The translations under genes were made by a program, and so were the position numbers. From assembly GCA_963805085.1 (NCBI GenBank), contig CAWDTA010000003.1, positions 1 through 64,000 on the forward strand: DNA of 64,000 bases, given 5' to 3'. Under the pieces are notes generated by a model, which saw only the letters and a program-made list of their open reading frames with translations, was not told the origin of the DNA and made no database searches. Shown here piece after piece: positions 3,001 to 48,585 of the stretch; the stretch's first letter is position 1, and each line of letters begins with the position of its first letter. The stretch is from an uncultured Veillonellaceae bacterium. Its GTDB lineage: Bacteria; Bacillota; Negativicutes; JARBTT01.

Positions 3001-6000
3001 AGCGCAAATCTTAGCCGATAAAGACATCACAATCAAGACAAAGTCAAATGTAATCAATCACTATAGCACAATTGCCGCTGGTAATGATCTAACCATAGAT
3101 GCAGCTTACTTAGAAAACTTCGGCTATCAAGGTACGATTATTACCACCGATGTCGGCAATGACATTCACAACTGGAAATATAAACACCATGGAAAACTGC
3201 ATCATCATTGCCATATGGTTTACGGCACTACCGTTATTCCCTATTACAATCAAACAGTAGTAGACGAAGAAACCGTCAGACCAGGTATTTTAAGCGGGGT
3301 CAAAAAAGTAAAGATTACTGCCGGAACGATCGACAATAAAACCTTTGATGCTGGTAAAAATGTCATTCAGACGAAGACCCAGGCAGTAACGCAGCCTAGC
3401 GTTCTAACCCAGTTGACAGGACAAACAAAAGTAGCCAGCCAAGTAGATCCTAAGATCAATGCCGAAGATAAGGAAATCACTATCGGAAGTCTAGCTATAA
3501 ATAGCAAACTGTTCACCATCAATACAAATCCAACAGCAAAATACTTGGTAGAAACAAATGAAAAATTTGCTAACTACAACAATTTCCTCTCCAGTGATTA
3601 CTTATTAGAACGGGTAAAATCTGATCCAACAAAAGTATCAAAACGCTTAGGTGATGGCTACTACGAACAAAAACTAGTCACCGAACAAATCACTGAATTA
3701 ACCGGTAAAAAATACTTAAACGACTACAGCTCAGCCCTTGAACAATACCAAGCCTTAATGGAAAATGGCGCAACCGTTGCCAATGAGTATAACCTTACCG
3801 TAGGTGTAGCCTTAACCAAAGAACAAATGGCAGCCTTAACCAGCGATATCGTATGGCTAGTCGAAGAAGAAGTAAACGGAGAAAAAGTCCTCGTTCCCGA
3901 AGTATACTTATCAACTCTAAAAACAGGCGATTTAACCAGCAGTGGAGCTCTCATTGTGGGAACAGACGTCGAACTAGTTGCCAGTGATGACTTAAAAAAT
4001 GTCGGCACCATAAAAGCAGATAACAATCTAACCGTAGCTGCCAAAAACATCACCAACGAAAATGGTGCGATTTCTGGCGCAGAAGTAACGCTGACCGCAG
4101 AAGAAAATGTAACCAATAACAGTGCAGCCATTACCGGGAAAAACGTAACCATCTCTGCTGAAAATATCACAAACACAACTCAAACTCAAACAGAAAATTA
4201 CCAAGAACTAAACCAAACAAAAACACTCGATACTGCAAGTATCGCAGCAGAAAACAACCTTACCCTAATCGCTGAAGACTCCATAAAAAATCAAGGAGCA
4301 AAGCTAAGTGCAGGTAAAGAACTCGTACTCACAGCCAAAAAAGATATCGACATCGAAGCCGTAGCGAAGGAAAAACACGTAGCCGTTACCTACGGTAAAT
4401 CCAGTGCCGAAGAAAACACTACAAAGAGCGTAAGTAGTACTCTAACCGGACAAAACATCACGATAAACGGTGACAATGTAAATATCAAAGGCTCAAATGT
4501 TGCCGCAGACGAAGCAGTAGCTATTACAGGCAAAACTAACGTCAACATTACCGCTGAAAAAGACCTCGCAGAAACAGATGCGTCCGTAGGAAATCGTGGC
4601 GGAGAATACTTCAATCGGCAAAAAGACAGCAACGAAACTATCGCTTCCAGCAGTATCACAGCCGGAAAAGATATTCAAATCAAAGCAGACAAAGACATCA
4701 ACGTCAAAGGCTCGGACATCTCCAGTAATAAAGGAAAAATCACTCTAGATGCAAAAGAAAATGTAAATGTCTCAAACGAAACCGAACATCACGAAAGCCT
4801 GCACGAAGAACACAGAGAAAAAACAGGCTTCCTATCCTCAACTAAAACAGATATCTACGACTATCAAGCAAAAGATACAGTTGTAGGCAGCAATATCTCC
4901 GGTAATCAAATAAATGCAGATGCTACGAAAGATATCAACATCAAAGGCTCAACAGCAGTAGCAGATCAAGATGTAAATCTAAAAGCCGGAGGAAATATCA
5001 ACATCGAATCCGCCGAAGAAACCAGTGAAAGCCTATACGAAAAATCCGTTAAAAAATCTGGTCTTCTAACAGGTGGCGGACTCAGCGTCACCATAGGGAA
5101 ACAAAGCCAAAAAGACAGCCAAGCTAACCAAAACACCGAACAAATCAGCTCAACTGTAGGCAGTCTACAAGGCAATGTAACCCTAGAAGCAGGAAAAGAT
5201 GTAGACGTAAAAGCCAGTGATGTAATCGCAAATAAAGACATCAACATCACCGGAGAAAACGTTAATATAGAAAATAAAGATAATACGTATAATGCAGAGG
5301 AAAAACACGAATTTAAACAAAGTGGTTTAACAATAGCACTAAAAAGTCAGACCATAGATACCTATAAAAAAGTTTACGACTCAGTAGACAGAGCCGGACA
5401 AGTTTCAGATGACCGTTTAAAAGCACTGTATGCCTATAAAGCAGATGAAGACTATAAAGACATAAAGAAACAAGAAAAAGCGGCAAAAGCTCTAAAAGAA
5501 CAACAAGAAGCAGAAGAAGCAAAAAAACAAGAAGAAGCAAAAAATAAACAAGGGGCAGATAAAAACGCTAAAGATGGAGCAGAGAAAAAACCAGCAGAAA
5601 AAAGTGATATCTCCATCAGTGTAAGTCTAGGAACAAGTAAATCCGAAAGCAGCGCAACCAGCCAAACAACAGCTGCGCAAGGCAGCAGTATCACAGGCGG
5701 AAATAATGTAAAGATCACGGCAACAAAAGAAGATATCAAAGTCAAAGGCTCAGATATCACCGGAGAAAATGTAACCTTAGATGCCAAGAAAAATATCGAA
5801 ATCACCGCCAGTGAAAACAAAAATGTAAGCAACTCTGACAGCAAAAGTAGCTCAGCAAGTATCGGAGCAAGTATAAACTTAGGTGATGGCAGTATTGGCG
5901 GACTCAATGTAAGTGGTAGCAAACAAACAGGAGAAATCAAAGAAAACTCCACCACCTATAACCAAAGTACAGTTACCGCCAATAGCACCTTAAAACTAGA

Positions 6001-9664: not shown

Positions 9665-11590
9665 AGAAAACGTCAATATAGAAAATAAAGATAATACGTA
9701 TAATGCAGAGGAAAAACATGAATTCAAACAAAGTGGTTTGACAATAGCGCTACAAAGTCAGACCATAGATACCTATAAAAAAGTTTACGACTCAGTAGAC
9801 AGAGCTGGACAAGTTTCAGATGACCGTTTAAAAGCACTGTATGCCTATAAAGCAGATGAAGACTATAAAGACATAAAGAAACAAGAAAAAGCGGCAAAAG
9901 CTCTAAAAGAACAACAAGAAGCAGAAGAAGCAAAAAAACAAGAAGAAGCAAAAAATAAACAGGGGCAGATAAAAACGCTAAAGATGGAGCAGAGAAAAAA
10001 CCAGCAGAAAAAAGTGATATCTCCATCAGTGTAAGTCTAGGAACAAGTAAATCCGAAAGCAGCTCAACCAGCCAAACAACAGCTGCGCAAGGCAGCAGTA
10101 TCACAGGCGGAAATAATGTAAAGATCACGGCAACAAAAGAAGATATCAAAGTCAAAGGCTCAGATATCACCGGAGAAAATGTAACCTTAGATGCCAAGAA
10201 AAATATCGAAATCACCGCCAGTGAAAACAAAAATGTAAGCAACTCTGACAGCAAAAGTAGCTCAGCAAGTATCGGAGCAAGTATAAACTTAGGTGATGGC
10301 AGTATTGGCGGACTCAATGTAAGTGGTAGCAAACAAACAGGAGAAATCAAAGAAAACTCCACCACCTATAACCAAAGTACAGTTACAGCCAATGACAACT
10401 TAACCATGAACTCTGGTAAAGATACGGATATCAAAGGGTCAAAAGTAAGTGGGGATAAAGTCAAAGTAGATGCAGGAGAAAATCTAAACCTAGAAAGCCT
10501 GCAAGACAAAGAAACCTATGATGAGAAAAACAGCTCAGCTGGTGGAACGATCGGTGTAGGTACGTTCAATGCATCAGCAAGTAAAGGAAAAATAAACTCA
10601 GACTATGAAAGCGTAACCAAGCAAGCCGAAATCCATGCAGGACAAGGCGGCTTCGATATCGAAGTAGGCAAAAATACCGATCTAAAAGGTGCGGTCATTT
10701 CGAGCGATGCTACGCCAGATAAGAATAAGGTCAGCACAGATACGCTGACTTTCTCCAATATGGAAAACAGAGCTAAATATAACTCAAGTAATACGGGGCG
10801 AAGTTATAACACAGATCCTAAGGCTAAATTAAATGAACAGGGATTTATTCCTACTGCTAATATGCCTGTATCTGGTGATGCAGATAGTACAACAAAGTCG
10901 GCTATTTCTCCTGGTACAATTGAAATAAGGAGTAATCCAAGTCAAGATATTTCTGGTCTTAGTCGAGATACTACTAATTCATTAAATGCTTTAGGTAAAA
11001 TATTTGACAAAGAAACGGTTAAAGAACGACAGGAGTTAGCAGGTTTATTTGGTCAAGTAGCATTTGAAGAAATTCATAAGTTAAGTGTAAAGAATGGGTG
11101 GAAAGATGGAGATCCTCAGAAAGTAGCACTCCATGCTCTAGTTGGTGGAATAATGTCTGAACTTACTGGAAGTGGTTTTACAGCTGGTGCTGAAGGCGCA
11201 GGCTTCAATGAACTTGTACAGAAGGAATTGTCGAAGATTACAGATCCTGCACTCCGTCAGTGGGCCAGCTATATTATCAGCTCTTCCACCGGTACAGCAG
11301 GTCGCGTTGCTGCGTTATATGGAACGAAGTATAATGATTTATGGGAGTCGACGAAACAATGGGCTGTGCAAGCTAGTGTAGATAGCGCTGCAGCGTTTGC
11401 TGCGTATAACACCGCAATTGCAGCGGGACTTTCTCCTTCAGAGGCAAGTTTTGCAGTAATTACTACAGGGGCAGTTTTATCTATTAGCGATAATGAGTAT
11501 AATTGGAGCGCTGCTATTGTTAAGTATTGTACTGAGTTAAAGTTTGATAAAGATGAAGAGGACCCAATACAGAGAAATAGAGCTTTTTGA
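9665..11590 (+). pseudogene. orphan cdiA 3' cassette (homology arm plus alternative C-terminal tip), frameshifted
   Basis: 9665-10728 nearly duplicates 5254-6318, with a 1-bp deletion near 9960 (AAACAGGGG versus AAACAAGGGG). The sequence then diverges and has GTKYNDL at the VENN-equivalent position followed by a short Ala-rich tip. Confidence 0.85.
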
Positions 11591-11962: not shown

Positions 11963-12010
11963 GAGCCGTCTTTTTTGACTCATGTAATTATGGATAATCA
12001 TATAGACAAG

Positions 12011-12378
12011 GTGACAGTTTTCAATGCTTCAAAAATTGGACACTGTCCCTATGGGAAAATAGGTAAATAAAAACGAGGTCAACGGACGTAAAAAATCCGT
12101 TAACCTTTTTTCATTTCAGGTGTTTTTTAGTGACACATAATTCACAGGCAATAAATTCCTATTAACAATACTATTTCAATTAATCTAGAAAATCTGAGTA
12201 ACTCTGAAATTAAAACGATTTAGACTCATTGCCTCCACAAAATGGACAACTACCTCCATAGCCATTACCAGAGCAATTAGAACAATAAGTACCACCACAG
12301 TCTTTGCATTTTTGTAATGCACCCATACAAGGGGCATCACTACCACAATTCGGACATTTTCTCACAGTATCATACATA
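12011..12378. repeat. post-immunity module copy 2
   Basis: Diverged duplicate of 8983-9351. Confidence 0.9.
12210..12377 (-). CDS. second copy of the 55-aa Cys-rich gene; ORF intact but RBS deleted
   Basis: MYDTVRKCPNCGSDAPCMGALQKCKDCGGTYCSNCSGNGYGGSCPFCGGNESKSF. The ATG abuts cdiA-derived sequence, so the GGAGG of copy 1 is missing. Confidence 0.7.
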   Translation of the reverse strand: MYDTVRKCPNCGSDAPCMGALQKCKDCGGTYCSNCSGNGYGGSCPFCGGNESKSF

Positions 12379-12864
12379 GACAGAGCTGGACAAGTTTCAG
12401 ATGACCGTTTAAAAGCACTGTATGCCTATAAAGCAGATGAAGACTATAAAGACATAAAGAAACAAGAAAAAGCGGCAAAAGCGCTAAAAGAACAACAAGA
12501 AGCAGAAGAAGCAAAAAAACAAGAAGAAGCAAAAAATAAACAGGGGGCAGATAAAAACGCTAAAGATGGAGCAGAGAAAAAACCAGCAGAAAAAAGTGAT
12601 ATCTCCATCAGTGTAAGTCTAGGAACAAGTAAATCCGAAAGCAGCTCAACCAGCCAAACAACAGCTGCGCAAGGCAGCAGTATCACAGGCGGAAATAATG
12701 TAAAGATCACGGCAACAAAAGAAGATATCAAAGTCAAAGGCTCAGATATCACCGGAGAAAATGTAACCTTAGATGCCAAGAAAAATATCGAAATCACCGC
12801 CAGTGAAAACAAAAATGTAAGCAACTCTGACAGCAAAAGTAGCTCAGCAAGTATCGGAGCAAGT
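12378..12864 (+). pseudogene. third cdiA homology-arm fragment, truncated at both ends
   Basis: Near-identical to 5386-5872 (constant offset 6992); it ends where the REP-like hairpin begins. Confidence 0.9.
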
Positions 12865-12904
12865 GGGACAAGGGGACAGGTTTACTGTCCCACTAATAAA
12901 AAGA

Positions 12905-12913
12905 TGTTATACT
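12905..12913 (+). promoter_or_regulatory. extended -10 promoter (TGtTATACT), the probable original RAYT promoter
   Basis: Removing the IS110 places it directly before GAGGTGAT and the RAYT ATG. Confidence 0.55.
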
Positions 12914-13056
12914 AATATTGAGACTAACTATATGAAGTCAAGAAAGAAAGCTAGTTTGGCAGGAAAAATTATGAGCGTTAAAATGGGCATAGAAATATAC
13001 ACCTAAGGCTGTTTGAAATTTAGCAGAAGGCGTAAGAAAAAAACAGAAAAAGATAG

Positions 13057-14235
13057 TTAGCTTTGAGGAATAAATGAAGAATTTGTTTTGAGTAAATGAA
13101 AGACCACTCTAACAAGTTTTTTACCAACGTGGCTCATGGCAACAGTGTAATGCTTTCCTTCTGTTTTCTTTTTGCAACAATACTCCTTAAAGGTAGTATC
13201 ACGCATAGCAACTAATCGAGCTGCGACTAAGAAAGCCCAGCGTAAGTAGGTAGAACCACGTTTAACCATGGGAGTATTCCCAGCATTAAACTTACCTGAC
13301 TGATAGGTAGATGGTTCAAGACCAGCAAACGCCAAAAGCTTTGCTGGTGTAGCAAAATTAGAGATATCTCCGATTTCCGCTAAAATGATTGCACCAATTG
13401 TGTAAGAAATTCCGGGGATTGTAAGGATCGGCGGATTAATATCTTTCATAATAGCCTTAATCTGTTGATCGAGAATGTTAATTTCCTCTTGGAAGTTGTA
13501 AATTAGTCGAATGGTTTGTTGTAACTCGAAGCTAACAGAAAGACTGTTACTGCCAATGGATTTCACTGCAAGTTCACGAAGTTGTATAGCTTTCTCCCTG
13601 CCGTAATGTCCCTTGGAGTTTTCAGCAATGAGATTGGTGAGTTTGGTCAGGTGACATTGTGCAATTTCCTTGGCGGTTGGATATTTGAGTAAAAGTGCAT
13701 AGCTTGAAGCTTGATGAATAGACCATACCAGTGAATGCAGTTCTGGAAACAAAATAGTAACTAATCTTGAAATTGAAATCTTAAGACGTGACCGCAAGGA
13801 AATCAGACGGAAACGATGCCTTACTAATGACTTTAATTCTGATATCTGATAAGATACGGGTGTATAGGACTTAGAGTCATCAGAAAAGAGCATGATAGCT
13901 AAAAATCGTGCATCGGTTTTGTCGGTCTTGGTTTTTCTTAAAGTTTGTCCCTTTCGGTATAGGTTGACGTGAAGTGGATTGAAAGTTGTGATTTCAAACC
14001 CTTTAGCTTTTAAGAAATTAGTAAGATTAGTGCTGTAATGACCTGTTGATTCAAGTCCTATACGTGCGTCTAAAAGCTTTTTATTGGGTAGAAAAGAAAC
14101 AACTGTATCATAGAAAAAATCAAAGCCCTCACGGTTATTGGTAAAAGTAAAATTACTATTTAGAACAGTGCCATCGCCGTTGATAATGCAGCAATCGTGC
14201 TTGGCTGATGCAACATCAATCCCGATATAAAGCAT
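13057..14235 (-). CDS. IS110-family DEDD recombinase/transposase
   Basis: YIGIDVASAKH, GLESTGHY, KTDKTDA, TIPGIS, YQSG motifs. Start moved to ATG 14235 because of the GAGGAG RBS at 14245-14250. Confidence 0.95.
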   Translation of the reverse strand: MLYIGIDVASAKHDCCIINGDGTVLNSNFTFTNNREGFDFFYDTVVSFLPNKKLLDARIGLESTGHYSTNLTNFLKAKGFEITTFNPLHVNLYRKGQTLRKTKTDKTDARFLAIMLFSDDSKSYTPVSYQISELKSLVRHRFRLISLRSRLKISISRLVTILFPELHSLVWSIHQASSYALLLKYPTAKEIAQCHLTKLTNLIAENSKGHYGREKAIQLRELAVKSIGSNSLSVSFELQQTIRLIYNFQEEINILDQQIKAIMKDINPPILTIPGISYTIGAIILAEIGDISNFATPAKLLAFAGLEPSTYQSGKFNAGNTPMVKRGSTYLRWAFLVAARLVAMRDTTFKEYCCKKKTEGKHYTVAMSHVGKKLVRVVFHLLKTNSSFIPQS

Positions 14236-14247
14236 AAATAACAACTC

Positions 14248-14494
14248 CTCTACAAGATTAACGCTGATTTCTTTCCACAAGACTTTATGCAATATGTATC
14301 CTTGTCCGATATAAAACGTCAAAGCGTTATCTAACTAATTAACAATTAAGCATAAAGCTGTGGTTGTATCCTCAAAAAAACAGTCAACCAAAATCAGTTG
14401 CTGTAGGTGATATAACCAATCCACAGTGTTACGTTAATCTTATAGAGTTTTAGACATTTTTTAAAGAAAAGGTAATGAAAACTCTACGGTTTTC
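14248..14494 (-). ncRNA. predicted bridge RNA of IS110 element 1
   Basis: Two stem/internal-loop domains carry segments matching the flanking target (14405-14412, 14371-14375) and the circle junction (14331-14337, 14301-14305). RNA ends are approximate. Confidence 0.8.
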
Positions 14495-14512
14495 ATTATA
14501 CAAGGTGATACT

Positions 14513-15271
14513 ATGCCAAGAAAAGCTCGGGTAAAAAGTGAAACAGGAATCTATCATCTGATATGTAGGGGAATCAATAAACAAAATATATTTGAAGATG
14601 AAGAAGACAAACAAAGATTTTTAGAAACGCTTGCATATTATAAGAAATTGAGCGGTTATTTGCTATATGGATATTGTTTGATGGATAACCATATTCATTT
14701 GCTGATAAAAGAGAATAAAGAATCAATAGACCAAGTGATAAAACGAATTAGTAGTAGCTATGTATATTGGTATAATCAAAAATATCAACGATGTGGGCAT
14801 TTGTTTCAAGAGCGATATAAGAGTGAAGTTGTCGAGACAGATGCATATTTTCTTATGGTTTTGAGATACATTCATCAGAATCCGGTAAAAGCAGGAATTA
14901 CCAAAAATGTAGGTAAATATTTGTGGAGTAGTTATCAAAATTATGTCGGTATACCAGGTATTACAGATATAGAGCTTGCGTTAGAAAATTTTTCGAGTGA
15001 CAAAGCAGCGGCGACAAAATTATTTATAGAGTATACAAATGAAAACAATGCAGATGAGTGTTTGGATTGTAGAGAAAAAGTGATTGTATCCGATCAAGAA
15101 ATAATGAAATATTTAAGTGAAATGGGAATAACAACGATTAGTCAATTGCAACGATTAAATAAAGAGCAACGGGATAATGTAATCCGAAAGATAAAAGAAA
15201 AGGATGGCATTACGATAAGGCAATTAGCAAGAATAACAGGAATTTCTAAAAGTGTAATTGATAGATTGTAG
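14513..15271 (+). CDS. REP-associated tyrosine transposase (RAYT, Y1_Tnp)
   Basis: MPRKAR...YHLICRGINKQNIF, YCLMDNHIHLL (HUH), GHLFQERYKS, YIHQNPVKAG, WSSY, and a C-terminal HTH. Confidence 0.92.
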   Translation: MPRKARVKSETGIYHLICRGINKQNIFEDEEDKQRFLETLAYYKKLSGYLLYGYCLMDNHIHLLIKENKESIDQVIKRISSSYVYWYNQKYQRCGHLFQERYKSEVVETDAYFLMVLRYIHQNPVKAGITKNVGKYLWSSYQNYVGIPGITDIELALENFSSDKAAATKLFIEYTNENNADECLDCREKVIVSDQEIMKYLSEMGITTISQLQRLNKEQRDNVIRKIKEKDGITIRQLARITGISKSVIDRL

Positions 15272-15563
15272 TGGGACAACAAACCTGTCCCTCTTGTCCC
15301 TAAGATTCAGAGGACAATGAGGGGAGTAATCATTGTTCTTTTTTATACGCTAAAATCAAAATTATTACAAAAAATCCTTTGATTAATGCATAAAATGGTT
15401 TAAAATGTTAATAAAAGAAATTAACTTATTTAAAGAGTCAGCAATCGGTTCACGGATATCTGTTGCTAATAATTGGAATAAACGACCTCGCCACGAGTCT
15501 CTCTTTTTGCTCTCAATTTCAGATTGAACTATAAGTAAATCAATAAATTTTTATTGGAGATGA

Positions 15564-34818: not shown

Positions 34819-34859
34819 TGTAAATGTGATAATTATTTCCATATCAAGGAGGAATTGCA

Positions 34860-35858
34860 ATGCAAGGAGTGGCAAATCAGCGTACGATTCATGCACAGCA
34901 CAGTTATGATTATTCGGTTTCGCAAATAAAAAATCCGAAAAGTCATCAAGTTTTAGGCTGGCAGGTTGCTGTTACTGGACAAGGACAGGGCAGCAGTCAG
35001 ACAGGAGCTTCAGAGGAAAATCCTGCTTATATACTACAGATATCGAATAAAGATGAGAATGGTAATGACGTATTAAATCAGTTTTATAAAGACAATGGAA
35101 TTAACCCTGACAATGTAGATCAAACAAAATTAGAAGTTCATCAGGTAGATGAAGAGGCTAATAGAATTGCATGTAAACCGCTAGACGATGCTGAAGGAAA
35201 AGCTTTTTTAGGAGGCTATGTAGAAAATCAAATTAAAGCTATGTTAAATCCGTTTAGCAAGTATGCTGATGCTAAAGATAATTTTGAATACCAGACTCAT
35301 CAGCTTTGTATAGCTTTAAATGGTTATTCACAATTTTTCGGATCCGATACAAGTTATTATAAAGAATTGACAGATAAACTGGATACCATAGATCCTGATC
35401 ATCAGAATAGTGTTGTCAGCTATATCAAGGATTTAATTGGTATATCTGCCAGTGGGCAACGAATTGGGTATGACGACAAACAAATAAAGACAGCTGGGAA
35501 AGCATTTGATGACTGTTTTGGCGGACTTAGTCTAGCCGATGCCAAGAAAAAAGGAAATGAAACCAGCAAAGCATTTACTAAGGCATTAGGCGAGTCTTCC
35601 ATAGATAAATTTATGAGGATATGGTCAGAGTCAAAATCGACAAAAGAAATTATGAATGATCTTATTAAAGCATTTAATCTGTCCGATAAAGAAGATACAG
35701 CGAAAACGGCTACATCGACCTCAGCATCAGATGTAGGTCTGCTAGCCAACCAGCAAACCTCGAAAGCCACCGATGACGAAAGCAACGAGCAGATGGCGAC
35801 GTTAAGGAGACAATTGGATGAAACACCTGTAGGAAACGTCGTTGATGTAGAAATGTAG
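34860..35858 (+). CDS. hypothetical protein, tandem paralogue 1
   Basis: AAGGAGG RBS; homologous end to end with the next two ORFs. Confidence 0.9.
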   Translation: MQGVANQRTIHAQHSYDYSVSQIKNPKSHQVLGWQVAVTGQGQGSSQTGASEENPAYILQISNKDENGNDVLNQFYKDNGINPDNVDQTKLEVHQVDEEANRIACKPLDDAEGKAFLGGYVENQIKAMLNPFSKYADAKDNFEYQTHQLCIALNGYSQFFGSDTSYYKELTDKLDTIDPDHQNSVVSYIKDLIGISASGQRIGYDDKQIKTAGKAFDDCFGGLSLADAKKKGNETSKAFTKALGESSIDKFMRIWSESKSTKEIMNDLIKAFNLSDKEDTAKTATSTSASDVGLLANQQTSKATDDESNEQMATLRRQLDETPVGNVVDVEM

Positions 35859-36176
35859 TATTGCTATGTTTCTGCAGTATCAAAAGAATCCTAATTTTGA
35901 ATAAATAATGATAGGTGAAGAGTGATAGATGGTGTCTATTGCTCTTTTTTACTTAAATTCAATGCGTTGTTTTAGATATAGTAAAAATTGACATTTATTT
36001 TACATAAGAAATTTTTGTAAAATAATACTTATAAAATATGGAAAAAATTCGATATAACTAATATAGGATATATTAATATTTATGTAATATTATGGTTTGG
36101 TAGTGAATGAAAAATAAATTTTTTTATTGTATGCCACAACTGAATACAGAAATTTCCATATCAAGGAGGAATTACA

Positions 36177-37175
36177 ATGCAAGGAGTAGCAAATCAGCGG
36201 ACGATTCATGCACAGCACAGCTATGATTATTCGGTTACGCAAATAAAAAATCCGAAAAATCATCAAATTCTAGGTTGGCAGGTAGCTGTTACTGAACAAG
36301 GACAGGGCAGCAGTCAGACAGGAGCTTCACAGGAAATTCCCGCGTATATACTACAGATATCCAATAAAGATGAGAAGGGTAATGACGTATTAAATCAGTT
36401 TTATAAAGACAACGGAATTGATCCTGATAATGTAGATCAAACAAAATTAGAAGTTCATCAGGTAGATGAAGAGGCTGATAGAATTGCACGTAAACCATTC
36501 GATGATGCTTATTCACAAGCTTTTTTAGGCGGTGATATAGAAAATGCAATTCATGGGATGTTAAATCCGTTCAATGATTACCAAGAGGCTTGGCGTAATT
36601 TTGGTGGAGCTGCTCAGGAGCTTACATATGCTTTAAATCATTATGAACAAGCTTTTGGGACAGATAATAGCTATTACAAAGAATTGATAGAAAAGCTGGA
36701 TACCATTGACCCTGAACATAAGAATAGTGCTGTCCTTTATATCAAAGATATGATCAGTAGATCTGCTGGAGGAGAACATCTTGAATTTGATGTATTTGGT
36801 GCACAAATGAAGGACGCTGGACAAGCATTTGATGACTGTTTTGGTGGACTTAGTTTAGTCGATGCCAAGAAAAAAGGAAAAGAAATGGCTAAAGCATTTA
36901 CTAAGGCATTAGGAGAGTCCTCGGTAGAAAAATATTTTGGGATACTGTTAAAGTCAAAATCAATAAAAGAAATTACTGAAGATTTTATTAAAGAACTTAA
37001 TTTATCCAAAAAAGAAGATACACCCCAAAAGGCTGAATCTCAATCAGATATAGGTTTGGTAGCAAATCACAAAGCATCACAAGCTAACGATGGCGAAAGT
37101 AACGAGCAGATGGCGATGTTAAAGAGACAATTAGATAAAAAAACTGTTGGGAGAGTTGTTGATGTAGAAATGTAG
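36177..37175 (+). CDS. hypothetical protein, tandem paralogue 2
   Basis: Same MQGVANQRTIHAQ start, VVDVEM end and RBS. Confidence 0.9.
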   Translation: MQGVANQRTIHAQHSYDYSVTQIKNPKNHQILGWQVAVTEQGQGSSQTGASQEIPAYILQISNKDEKGNDVLNQFYKDNGIDPDNVDQTKLEVHQVDEEADRIARKPFDDAYSQAFLGGDIENAIHGMLNPFNDYQEAWRNFGGAAQELTYALNHYEQAFGTDNSYYKELIEKLDTIDPEHKNSAVLYIKDMISRSAGGEHLEFDVFGAQMKDAGQAFDDCFGGLSLVDAKKKGKEMAKAFTKALGESSVEKYFGILLKSKSIKEITEDFIKELNLSKKEDTPQKAESQSDIGLVANHKASQANDGESNEQMAMLKRQLDKKTVGRVVDVEM

Positions 37176-37484
37176 AATTGCTATGCTTCTGCATTATCAA
37201 AAGAATATTAATTAATGATAGATGAAGAGTGATAGATAGTGTCTATTGCTCTTTTTTACTTATATTCAATGCGTTGTTTTAAATATAGTAGAAATTAACA
37301 TTTATTTTACATAAGAAATTTTTGTAAAAATATACTTATAAAATATGGAAAAAATTCGATATAACTAATATAGGATATTTTTAATATTTATGACATATTA
37401 TGGTCTAGTATTGAATGAAACATAAACTTTTTTATTGTATGCCACAACTTAATACGGATATTTCCATATCAAGGAGGAATTACA

Positions 37485-38489
37485 ATGCAAGGAGTAGCAA
37501 ATCAGCGTACGATTCATGCACAGCGCAGCTATGATTATTCGGTTTCGCAAATAAAAAATCCCCAAAATCATCAAATTTTAGGCTGGCAGGTTGCTGTTAC
37601 GGACAAAGGCCAGGACAGCAACCAGACAGGAGCTTCACAGCAAAGTCCTGCGTATATACTACAGTTGTCGAATAAAGATGAGAATGGTAATGACGTATTA
37701 AATCAGTTTTATAAAGATAATGGAATTGATCCTGACAATGTAGATCAAACAAAATTTGAAGTTTTGGATGTAAATGATGAGGAATCTAAAATTGAACGTA
37801 AAGTGTTCGATGATGCAGGGTGTAAGAGTATGACTCAATACTGGATAGAGACCTCAATTAACAACATGCTAAATCCGTTTGATGGTCAAAAAAACGTGCA
37901 AGGAGCTAAAGAGGCGTTTGAATTTTCGGCGCAGTTTCTTAGCAAGAGGCTGAATGAGTTCTCAGAAGGCTTCGGATCCGATACAAGTTATTATAAAGAA
38001 TTGACGGATAAACTGGATGCCATAGATCCTGATCACAAGAATAGCGCTGTCAGCTACATCAAGGATTTAATTGGTATATCTGCCAGTGGAAAACGAATTG
38101 AGTATGACGATAAACAAGAGAAGGCCGCTGGACAGGCATTTGAGGAATGTTTTGCTGGACTTAGTCTAGCCGATGCAAAGAAAAAAGGGCGAGAAACCAG
38201 TAAAGCCTTTACTAAGGCTTTAGGGGAGTCCTCGGTAGATAAATTTATGAGGATATGGTCAGAGTCAAAATCGACAAAAGAAATTATGAAGGATCTTATT
38301 AAAGCGTTTAATCTATCCACAAAAGAAGAAGATACATCAAAAACATCAAAATCAACAGCAGATGTTGATCTCTTAGCAAACCAGCAAACAGCACAAGCCA
38401 CCAATGATGGAAGCAACGTGCAGATGGCAACGTTAAAGAGACAGTTAGATAAAAAACCTGTTGGAAGCGTTGTTGATGTAGAAATGTAG
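37485..38489 (+). CDS. hypothetical protein, tandem paralogue 3
   Basis: Same MQGVANQRTIHAQ start, VVDVEM end and RBS. Confidence 0.9.
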   Translation: MQGVANQRTIHAQRSYDYSVSQIKNPQNHQILGWQVAVTDKGQDSNQTGASQQSPAYILQLSNKDENGNDVLNQFYKDNGIDPDNVDQTKFEVLDVNDEESKIERKVFDDAGCKSMTQYWIETSINNMLNPFDGQKNVQGAKEAFEFSAQFLSKRLNEFSEGFGSDTSYYKELTDKLDAIDPDHKNSAVSYIKDLIGISASGKRIEYDDKQEKAAGQAFEECFAGLSLADAKKKGRETSKAFTKALGESSVDKFMRIWSESKSTKEIMKDLIKAFNLSTKEEDTSKTSKSTADVDLLANQQTAQATNDGSNVQMATLKRQLDKKPVGSVVDVEM

Positions 38490-38520
38490 TATTGGATGAG
38501 AGTGATTTATGCATATAATT

Positions 38521-38574
38521 TAAACAACTAAGAGCCACCTACTCAAACTAAAGTAGGTGGCTCTTAGTTGTTTA
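38521..38574. terminator. bidirectional terminator (long perfect inverted repeat)
   Basis: TAAACAACTAAGAGCCACCTACT / AGTAGGTGGCTCTTAGTTGTTTA between convergent genes. Confidence 0.8.
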
Positions 38575-47304: not shown

Positions 47305-48585
47305 TTAAATTTGGCTTACTCTACTTGGAGAGTAAAGCTGATGGTTGACCAGCAATCCAAAAATCAGCCGGATGAATTTACGAGCAGTAAGTGCGAGTGC
47401 GCGTTTGTGCTGATGAGTTTTAACTTCATCATACTTTTTCTGGTAAAAAGCTGCATATTCAGCTAAATGATTCTTTACATGGCTTGCAGCTTCAATTAAA
47501 TAGTATCTGAGATAAGTATTGCCAGCTTTTGAAAGGATGGTATCATCGGCTCTGAAATTGCCAGATTGGTTTTCACGCCAGACAAGACCAGCATATTTAG
47601 CAAGAGCTTCCTGAGACTTAAAGGCCTCAATAGAACCAATCTCAGCAATAATGCCAGCAGCATAAACCGGACCAATTCCAGGAATGGATAAAAGGCTTTG
47701 GTAAGCGTTAGGATCAAGTCCCCGAAGCGTTTTCTCAATAGCCTTATTGATAGCCTTCATTTCAGATTCATAGGCTGAAATAAGGTTAAATGATGAGGCG
47801 ATAGAGATAGTTAAAGGCTCGTATAAACATTTATCCAATCGGTAGGAATTGCGAGCGGCTTGCTGTAGTAAAGAAGCTGTGTGTTCAGGATTTGCAAAAC
47901 GATTTTTGCCTTTTTTACAAATGTGTTCAATTAGTGCTGCCATCGGCATGTTAGCGATATCTTCGGTAGAAAGAAAATCAGTTAAAACCGAAGAAGCGGC
48001 AGCGCCATAGTTATTAGAAAAGGGCTGCTTATCATCGTCGAGAATAGAAAACTCACTAAATTTAAGAAAGATGTTTGAAAGCATATAGGTTTTCTCACGA
48101 GTAAGAGAACGAGCTATATGTAATCGATGGCGAGTTAGACGCTGCAAAGCTAAAAATTGACTGCCGCGCCAAGGAGCAGAGGTAATTCTGCCAACTCTAG
48201 CAAAATCAGCGATAATAAAAGAATCAATTGCATCAGTTTTGCCTAGACCGATATAAGACTTTTTGTAATTGGCAACCATCTTGGGATTTATACAGTAAAC
48301 ATGAGTGTCAAATGGCATCAATAATTCACAGGAAGATAAGTAGTTAGCTATGTGAATACCATAGAAAGATGTAGATTCTAAGGCAACAACCAGCTTATTA
48401 AGATCATGATTTTCAGAAAAAAAATCATGAAACTTTTTAGCCATTTCAACTGCACCTGGTTGATTATTGGGCACAGTAAATCGCAACAGTTTTTGCTCTT
48501 CAAAATCAATAGCGCAAACGACATTTTCGCGGGAACTTATGTCAATTCCCACAAACAAAGTAGAAAGAAGATCCGCCTTCTTCAT
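47305..48585 (-). CDS. IS110-family DEDD recombinase/transposase
   Basis: FVGIDIS, ALESTSFY, KTDAIDS, SIPGIG and NQSG motifs. Confidence 0.95.
   Translation of the reverse strand: MKKADLLSTLFVGIDISSRENVVCAIDFEEQKLLRFTVPNNQPGAVEMAKKFHDFFSENHDLNKLVVALESTSFYGIHIANYLSSCELLMPFDTHVYCINPKMVANYKKSYIGLGKTDAIDSFIIADFARVGRITSAPWRGSQFLALQRLTRHRLHIARSLTREKTYMLSNIFLKFSEFSILDDDKQPFSNNYGAAASSVLTDFLSTEDIANMPMAALIEHICKKGKNRFANPEHTASLLQQAARNSYRLDKCLYEPLTISIASSFNLISAYESEMKAINKAIEKTLRGLDPNAYQSLLSIPGIGPVYAAGIIAEIGSIEAFKSQEALAKYAGLVWRENQSGNFRADDTILSKAGNTYLRYYLIEAASHVKNHLAEYAAFYQKKYDEVKTHQHKRALALTARKFIRLIFGLLVNHQLYSPSRVSQI

Follow-up and report, generated by a model that had tools for sequence, protein, structure and literature searches.

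The question raised by this locus is whether the non-coding left end of an IS110-family element encodes a bridge RNA, and whether the guides of that RNA can be read against the DNA that the element joins. An earlier note on the window (the whole 64,000-nucleotide stretch that was analysed) proposed that they can, and called the recombinase and its RNA a complete candidate programmable pair. As a description of the sequence this is fair. Our own reading, to which we give a probability of about 0.87, is that positions 12921-14502 are an intact IS110-group insertion sequence whose left end encodes a candidate bridge RNA of the IS621 type. Descriptions of bridge RNAs date from 2024 onwards, many IS110 left ends have been mined for them, and another well-formed pair adds little alone; the value of this one is as a clean worked example, with exact ends taken from empty sites in the same genome and every guide readable.

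Borders of the element and the site it interrupts

The insertion sequence is 1582 bp long and lies on the minus strand (Table 1); the right-hand CT is counted in, and the border is ambiguous by two positions owing to the 2-nt core, which is found as CT at both junctions. When the 4.2-Mb assembly was searched with positions 12880-14560, the interior of the element matched only itself, as a single copy. The 58 nt at the start of the query and the 43 nt at its end had matches elsewhere that lie side by side and share two bases (CT). Apart from the window, the left flank matches six places in the genome and the right flank five. Two of the six paralogous uninterrupted sites that were printed out read exactly TATCACCT then CAATATTAG, that is, the flanks minus the element. 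Because such sites exist in the same genome the ends of the element are fixed, and since element and target disagree at the bases next to CT on each side, the core has a length of exactly two bases. By comparison with these sites the insertion is scarless: the empty site is precise, the flanks overlap by CT, and nothing of the target is duplicated apart from the core. In sequencing run X3, a relative with 93% identity is represented by a 1592-nt contig that spans 12920-14509 with 118 differences and corresponds to the element unit plus the shared target bases.

The DNA on either side belongs to a multi-copy IS200-like element (12865-12920 and 14503-15271 in the window; loci L002-L006, L173 and L175 in the genome) that encodes a 252-aa Y1 transposase and has a leader hairpin, GGGACAG...CTGTCCC. 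The window copy abuts a truncated hemagglutinin-repeat gene at 12864, the position at which homology to the neighbouring hemagglutinin-repeat paralogues ends. A filamentous-hemagglutinin repeat segment occurs in the window in three copies that are 97-99% alike (5254-5839, 9665-10249 and 12246-12831), which suggests an array of alternative C-terminal cassettes.

The recombinase contains the Pfam domains DEDD_Tnp_IS110 (PF01548; 5.2e-38, 130.7 bits) and Transposase_20 (PF02371; 4.3e-22, 78.7 bits), both above cut-off. Among solved structures it matches the IS621 recombinase chain 8wt6_A (E 6.7e-21) and also ISCro4 (9t56_A), and its residues D7, E62, D105, D108 and S313 align with the catalytic D11, E60, D102, D105 and S241 of IS621. 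Its Shine-Dalgarno sequence is GGAG, at 14248..14245 on the minus strand. A second, different IS110-family recombinase gene is located at 48079-48552 on the minus strand (PF01548, 104.6 bits) and has at least three full copies in the genome, including G000:C1:356159-356632 and C3:104761-105234; this is presumably the "element 2" of the earlier note.

Table 1. Coordinates of the element, its candidate bridge RNA and the interrupted site in the window
Feature	Position	Strand	Basis or remark
Element	12921..14502	-	Flanks adjoin with CT overlap in other host-repeat copies; X3 contig of a relative
Left junction CT core	14503..14504	-	Sequence and uninterrupted sites
Right junction CT core	12921..12922	-	Sequence and uninterrupted sites
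Left half of target	14503..14510	-	On the + strand, Shine-Dalgarno AGGTGATA of the gene at 14513
Right half of target matched by guide, CAA	12918..12920	-	Sequence and uninterrupted sites
Target gene, Y1 (IS200-like) transposase, 252 aa	14513..15271	+	Pfam Y1_Tnp; severed from its own leader by the insertion
Other half of interrupted IS200-like leader, with hairpin GGGACAGGTTTACTGTCCC	12865..12920	-	Sequence comparison with paralogues
Recombinase gene P0001, 392 aa	13057..14235	-	Pfam domains and alignment to IS621
Non-coding left end encoding candidate bridge RNA, 267 nt	14236..14502	-	Fold and covariation in relatives
Target-binding module	14358..14426	-	Fold; helices 1 and 2 in relatives
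Left target guide UAUCACCU, target positions 2-9	14405..14412	-	Identity to flank; covariation in relatives
Right target guide UUGAG	14371..14375	-	Complementary to core and target positions 10-12
GA, handshake-guide positions, target module	14369..14370	-	Analogy with IS621; in relatives a conserved G, then A or C
Donor-binding module	14283..14357	-	Fold; helices 3-5 in relatives
Left donor guide UAGUUAG	14331..14337	-	Sequence and relatives; only AGUUAG (14336..14331) constrained among relatives
Right donor guide ACAAG	14301..14305	-	Complementary to core and donor positions 10-12
GA, handshake-guide positions, donor module	14299..14300	-	Analogy with IS621; relatives
Left donor, terminus of right end, TAGTTAGT ahead of core	12923..12930	-	Conserved in relatives
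5' strand of predicted 17-bp long-range helix enclosing both modules	14431..14447	-	Minimum-free-energy fold only
3' strand of 17-bp helix	14248..14264	-	Touches first G of recombinase Shine-Dalgarno GGAG (14248..14245)
TTGACT, putative -35 half of joined-ends promoter	12936..12941	-	Sequence; TTGACTTCATATAGTTAGTCT conserved; function inferred from IS621
TATAAT, putative -10 half	14495..14500	-	17 nt from TTGACT across joined core; columns 3-8 nearly invariant in alignment

Modules and guides of the candidate bridge RNA

The minimum-energy fold of 14504..14236 has a free energy of -69.8 kcal/mol, compared with -49.6 +/- 4.1 for shuffled sequences (z = -4.9; 0 of 200 as good). It contains two internal-loop modules, and so returns the arrangement of target and donor loops that the earlier note had drawn. 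Read 5' to 3', the target module consists of CTGTGGATTG, a loop with TATCACCT (14412..14405), a hairpin ACAGCAAC...GTTGACTGT (14404..14380), a loop with TTGAG (14375..14371) and CAACCACAG (14366..14358). Its basal stem is formed by CUGUGG-A-UUG with CAA-CCACAG, and 14404..14380 is the inner hairpin. The donor module (14357..14283) is closed by CTTTATGC and GCATAAAG and holds TAGTTAG (14337..14331) and ACAAG (14305..14301); as RNA, its basal stem pairs CUUUAUGC with GCAUAAAG, followed by UGU with ACA and by an inner hairpin of AACG with CGUU. Folded in isolation as single sequences, the modules pair their guides with each other in the loops, which we treated as an artefact of folding without protein and DNA. 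A scan of 12000-15500 against Rfam 15 at E <= 1 found nothing in 14236-14504, the only match being a chance GAIT hit elsewhere (E 0.57).

In IS621 of Escherichia coli, which has a 177-nt bridge RNA, left guides base-pair to the bottom strand and therefore read like the top one, right guides base-pair to the top strand, and the core is part of every guide, according to the accessible parts of the two reports on this element (Durrant et al. 2024, PMC11208160; Hiraizumi et al. 2024, PMC11208158). Here all four guide strings put forward in the earlier note are present where it placed them, on the minus strand and in the relation to the DNA that it gave. The left target guide TATCACCT (14412..14405) is identical to the left flank 14510..14503 at 8 of 8 positions, the preceding base (A at 14413) being a mismatch to target position 1 (G), and TTGAG (14375..14371) is the reverse complement of CTCAA at 12922..12918 (5/5). 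On the donor side TAGTTAG (14337..14331) is identical to the right end 12930..12924 (7/7), and ACAAG (14305..14301) is the reverse complement of CTTGT at 14504..14500 (5/5). It is possible that the right donor guide continues beyond a 3-nt bulge, where UAU (14313..14311) lies opposite ATA.

How often such words arise by chance was estimated from 20000 dinucleotide-preserving shuffles of the 267-nt left end, counting the share that held each word anywhere. TATCACCT was found in 0.3% of the shuffles, TAGTTAG in 3.7%, TTGAG in 40% and ACAAG in 30%; none of the 20000 held all four. As the 5-mers are so common in shuffles they are meaningless alone, and the weight is carried by the 8-mer and the 7-mer together with their placement in the loops.

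Past AGUUAG the left donor guide does not continue into the core in a regular manner: the RNA has AUA where the donor has TCT, so that donor position 7 and the second core base are mismatched and the first core base could form a G-U wobble at most. As far as the letters go, the left donor guide is thus without canonical core pairing. In the consulted portions of the IS621 reports, the left donor guide extends to the first core base and position 7 is tolerant of mismatch (PMC11208160; PMC11208158).

The hexamer GATACA directly follows both right guides (14370..14365 and 14300..14295), as had been pointed out previously. We considered it as a separate signal and rejected this, as GA occupies the positions of the handshake dinucleotide in IS621 and ACA belongs to the stems, the stem bases of this region being UGU/ACA in the donor module and UUG/CAA in the target module. 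The corresponding places in relatives read G[A/C]U[A/C][U/C]A for the target loop and G[A/U]UAC[A/G] for the donor loop; several of the six vary, and therefore the identity of the two hexamers is partly accidental here. What the shared GATACA mirrors is the pseudo-symmetry of the two modules.

The handshake bases themselves follow the IS621 pattern in one module only. According to the rule derived for IS621, the handshake guide pairs with non-cognate and not with cognate DNA; cognate pairing blocked strand exchange in that system (PMC11208160; PMC11208158, in the parts available). The G of the donor module fits C7 of the target, as expected from this rule. In contrast, the rule fails at the target module, where the G fits C7 of its own target (C in 41 of 41 sites) and could form only a G-T pair with T7 of the donor. 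Because the clade is evidently mobile despite a G that can pair with cognate DNA, the handshake pairing rule of IS621 may not define the family.

Relatives of the left end and the choice of target

Matches to the recombinase are abundant, more than 7996 proteins at E <= 1e-30, many of them on contigs of about 1.5-1.7 kb. We fetched more than 90 related loci and analysed 42 left ends from genomes and 55 from metagenomes. The genome set came from a scan of species-representative genomes that gave 79 loci, 56 of which were picked at an identity of at least about 46%; two were dropped for having less than 240 nt upstream and five were unalignable or truncated, leaving 49 loci, mostly 60-68% identical and from Clostridia. 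The closest relatives in the genome collection are at most 68% identical and lie in Clostridia. The metagenome set began as 80 loci from a contig scan, of which 58 were picked; 55 of these extended far enough upstream, and neither the window nor one locus that did not align was counted.

The stems were assessed in an alignment of 41 distinct left ends and that of the window, 42 in total, by counting the six stems of the bridge-RNA model. A covariance model from homologous left ends had been named in the earlier note as a check on the RNA, and the outcome of this count favours it: standard pairs occupy 97.7% of 1175 cells, and both sides have changed in 17 of 28 pairs. None of 500 shuffles reached any of these measures, and sliding the partner strand by 1-3 columns reduced pairing to 19-48%. 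In the target module, helices 1 and 2 have 97.9% and 97.0% of cells paired, with compensatory change in 5 of 9 and 2 of 4 pairs respectively; in the basal stem of the donor module all 8 pairs show compensatory change.

For the guides, the loop segments of each locus were compared with its own flanks, the null being guides dealt to other loci in 10000 permutations. Among 41 distinct pairs of the genome set, the window included, the left guide matches flank positions 1-7 in 220 of 287 cases (160.5 +/- 6.3 expected), and the first three nucleotides of the right guide match in 80 of 123 (43.7 +/- 4.5), with position 10, the base after the core, matched in 40 of 41; no permutation did as well in either case (0/10000). 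Positions 1-3 of the left guide match in only 15, 22 and 26 of the 41, and the guide is effectively 6-8 nt. The metagenome set, without the window, gave 193 of 266 for the left guide (140.1 +/- 6.1; 0/10000) and 73 of 108 for the right guide (50.8 +/- 3.5), position 10 being matched in 36 of 36. Although these statistics are inflated by relatedness among the loci, guides and flanks changing together is the pattern predicted by guide-directed insertion, and the loop segments read as target guides in the earlier note (8/8 with 14503-14510, and TTGAG with 12918-12922) follow the flanks of the individual insertions in two independent sets of loci, at 0/10000 each. In one complete genome an identical guide is found at five different sites that fit it (L028, L030, L036, L040 and L042).

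On the donor side there is less to follow. The right end is nearly invariant in relatives, ending in TTGACTTCATATAGTTAGTCT, and so is the donor loop, for which reason donor-side covariation is scarce. Changes of the right end are mirrored in the donor guide at two loci (L057 and L058) and uncompensated at two others (L048 and L134). The T at 14337 (donor position 0) is replaced by G in 11 relatives whose right end keeps T, and therefore the first base of TAGTTAG is not a constrained pair; of the left donor guide proposed earlier, AGUUAG is the constrained part. Most relatives have GCAAG where the window has ACAAG, giving a G-T wobble at donor position 12, like the G161:dT12 pair reported for the IS621 structure. 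Relatives that are 91% and 80% identical share the donor module of the window.

A common feature of the insertion sites is that they are ribosome-binding sites. In 34 of 37 distinct sites, that of the window among them, the opposite strand of the left flank reads AGG[T/A]G[A/G], and after 4-5 further bases an open frame begins with its start codon. Insertion in the clade falls on the 5' edge of the Shine-Dalgarno sequence, 10-11 nt before the start codon (loci L017-L076, and 14503-14525 in the window). The core CT corresponds to the AG of the Shine-Dalgarno, and the element is divergent from the gene, which retains its ribosome-binding site and start codon and loses the part upstream. The target sequence of the present element is TATCACCTCAA. 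The genome has only the one copy of the element, although eight perfect 11-nt sites are unoccupied, four of them within IS200-like leaders.

The left target guide has the anti-Shine-Dalgarno sense, and 14411..14405 is identical (7/7) to the 3' tail of the host 16S rRNA. The 3' end of the 16S rRNA gene reads GATCACCT and then CC, which fits the left target guide as well as the initial base of the right one; this near-target is present in eight copies (G000:C2:669994-671549 and seven more), none of which is occupied.

Oriented insertion at translation initiation signals is known from IS900 and IS901, IS110-family elements of Mycobacterium avium, which insert between the Shine-Dalgarno and the start codon (PMC2942039, as far as this source was accessible). 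This is not the case here, where the crossover is at the 5' edge and the whole Shine-Dalgarno stays on the gene side. A literature search for ribosome-binding-site targeting tied to a bridge RNA found only the IS900/IS901 precedent, and the supplementary motif tables of Durrant et al. may cover the clade.

Expression, competing readings and known systems

By analogy with IS621, the element would excise as a circle whose joined ends create a promoter; the transcript would fold into the target and donor modules and bind a recombinase tetramer, and strand exchange would occur at CT, with the 5' edge of a Shine-Dalgarno, here that of the IS200-like transposase gene, as the target. Joining the ends places TTGACT (12941..12936) 17 nt from TATAAT (14500..14495), and both halves are conserved among relatives, so that a promoter appears, judged from sequence and by the IS621 precedent, to be reconstituted across the junction. 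An extended -10 reading of TGTATAAT was rejected because TG abuts the hexamer and is not one base off. In the integrated state, a scan of 12850-14600 gave 5 promoter-like sites against 5.7 expected; no sigma-70-like site lies upstream of the RNA on the minus strand, and a terminator scan of the same interval found none after the donor module.

Among public sequencing runs the best contains 0.15 of the sampled words of the element, and the element itself is in none. Four runs compared at 80% likeness yielded contigs of relatives only, among them the 1592-nt contig of X3 and, in RNA library X20, a 251-nt contig that spans 14272-14507 with 10 differences; we took neither as transcription. NZ_OY725734.1 (locus L092), listed in PLSDB as a 1563-bp "circular plasmid", is only an IS110 relative (53% identical) and was rejected as a circle junction; it is more likely to be an assembly product, because its ends join through five extra target bases (CACCT).

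The RNAalifold consensus of the relatives did not return the basal stem of the target module and preferred a competing long-range helix, in which the 5' strand of the target stem finds its partner some 20 nt ahead of the recombinase ribosome-binding site. This helix (alignment columns 92-98 with 272-278) is 93.5% paired, and 4 of its 7 pairs are changed on both sides. In minimum-energy folds of 42 whole left ends, the target stem is formed in 9, the donor stem in 31 and long-range pairs in 32. In the window itself a different helix, of 17 bp (14447..14431 with 14264..14248), is predicted around both modules and extends to the first G of GGAG. On these models, such long-range pairing may couple RNA folding to translation of the recombinase, switching the transcript between bridge RNA and mRNA leader.

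Such pairing could be turned into a different account of the left end, as chiefly an mRNA leader through which translation or transcription of the recombinase is controlled, with the conserved helices acting as a switch and not as a guide scaffold. The covarying competitor of the target stem, the long-range pairs in most single folds and the reach of the 17-bp helix of the window to the recombinase Shine-Dalgarno all speak for it, yet it leaves unexplained why the loop sequences follow the flanks and why the donor matches exist; the canonical stems covary more strongly, and a control function is compatible with a guide role and would be more an addition than a rival. We consider it improbable as a replacement. 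It is still harder to credit that the guide matches are accidental, or a by-product of site choice by the protein at AT-rich sequence: the two 5-mers do turn up in 40% and 30% of shuffles, but the rarity of the 8-mer, the failure of any shuffle to hold all four words and the joint change of guides and flanks in two independent sets make this highly unlikely.

A more serious alternative, though one we also regard as unlikely, accepts the RNA and its guides as read and takes this copy to be inert, either a relic or a recent newcomer at a dead end, with no transposition in its host. There is one copy only, although its flanks have 5-6 further copies and eight perfect sites are free, four of them in IS200-like leaders; the integrated left end lacks a promoter-like site, and the distance to the closest relatives of the genome collection, in Clostridia, fits a foreign origin. 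Set against this, the reading frame is open over 392 aa with the five catalytic positions present, and the ends, stems and guides are all intact, the guides still matching this very site. The 91% and 80% identical relatives have the same donor module, and elements whose expression is confined to the circle commonly have few copies; a circle-specific promoter is described for IS621 (PMC11208160; PMC11208158, in the parts consulted).

Taken as a large, mainly clostridial clade, these IS110 elements may be given a joint reading, which we offer tentatively and at a little below even odds. The left target guide would have been turned into a copy of the 16S anti-Shine-Dalgarno tail, so that all members land at the 5' edge of ribosome-binding sites, 10-11 nt before the start and always divergent; guide positions 1-3 and the short right guide would pick among genes, the multi-copy IS200-like leader would serve here as a safe landing pad, and the conserved helix that competes with the target stem may toggle the transcript between bridge RNA and recombinase mRNA leader.

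Compared with IS621, as far as the accessible parts of its description go, the element is alike in having both recombinase domains, the catalytic residues, the CT core and the RNA in the left end upstream of the gene. It shares the two pseudo-symmetric internal-loop modules, the strand senses of the guides with the core in both, a short right target guide, a promoter split between the ends and, in most relatives, a G opposite donor T12. It differs in that the protein is distant (E 6.7e-21 over two aligned stretches) and has 392 aa in place of a 328-residue chain; about 93 nt precede the target module, compared with 33 in IS621; of the left guides, that for the target has an effective length of 6-8 nt and that for the donor ends at position 6; the handshake G of the target module is able to pair with cognate target DNA; and the target is a Shine-Dalgarno, where that of IS621 is a repetitive extragenic element. 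For engineers, points of possible interest are a short natural target guide (6-8 plus 1-3 nt) directed to ribosome-binding sites, a donor guide that appears to do without canonical core pairing, and a target-module handshake base that pairs with its own target, contradicting the IS621 rule in a family that is plainly mobile.

Two other systems bear comparison, again within what their sources made available. CazIS110-1 of Caloranaerobacter azorensis (bioRxiv 10.1101/2025.10.25.684509), compared by its published description, likewise belongs to IS110 and comes from a Clostridia-type host; its bridge RNA measures about 170 nt, and it is reported to be active in vivo and in vitro, with a dominant RNA that contains the target module only. 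The seekRNA of IS1111 and IS110 elements such as ISEc11 (Siddiquee et al. 2024, PMC11187229) follows the same principle, a short RNA from a non-coding region selecting the target. In the IS1111 group this RNA is downstream of the gene and there are subterminal inverted repeats, in contrast to the upstream candidate RNA here.

A scan of the window for inverted repeats of at least 40 nt found none. Elsewhere in it, positions 34835-38555 comprise three tandem units of about 1.31 kb that are 65-94% alike (repeat families D2, D4, D5, D7 and D8).
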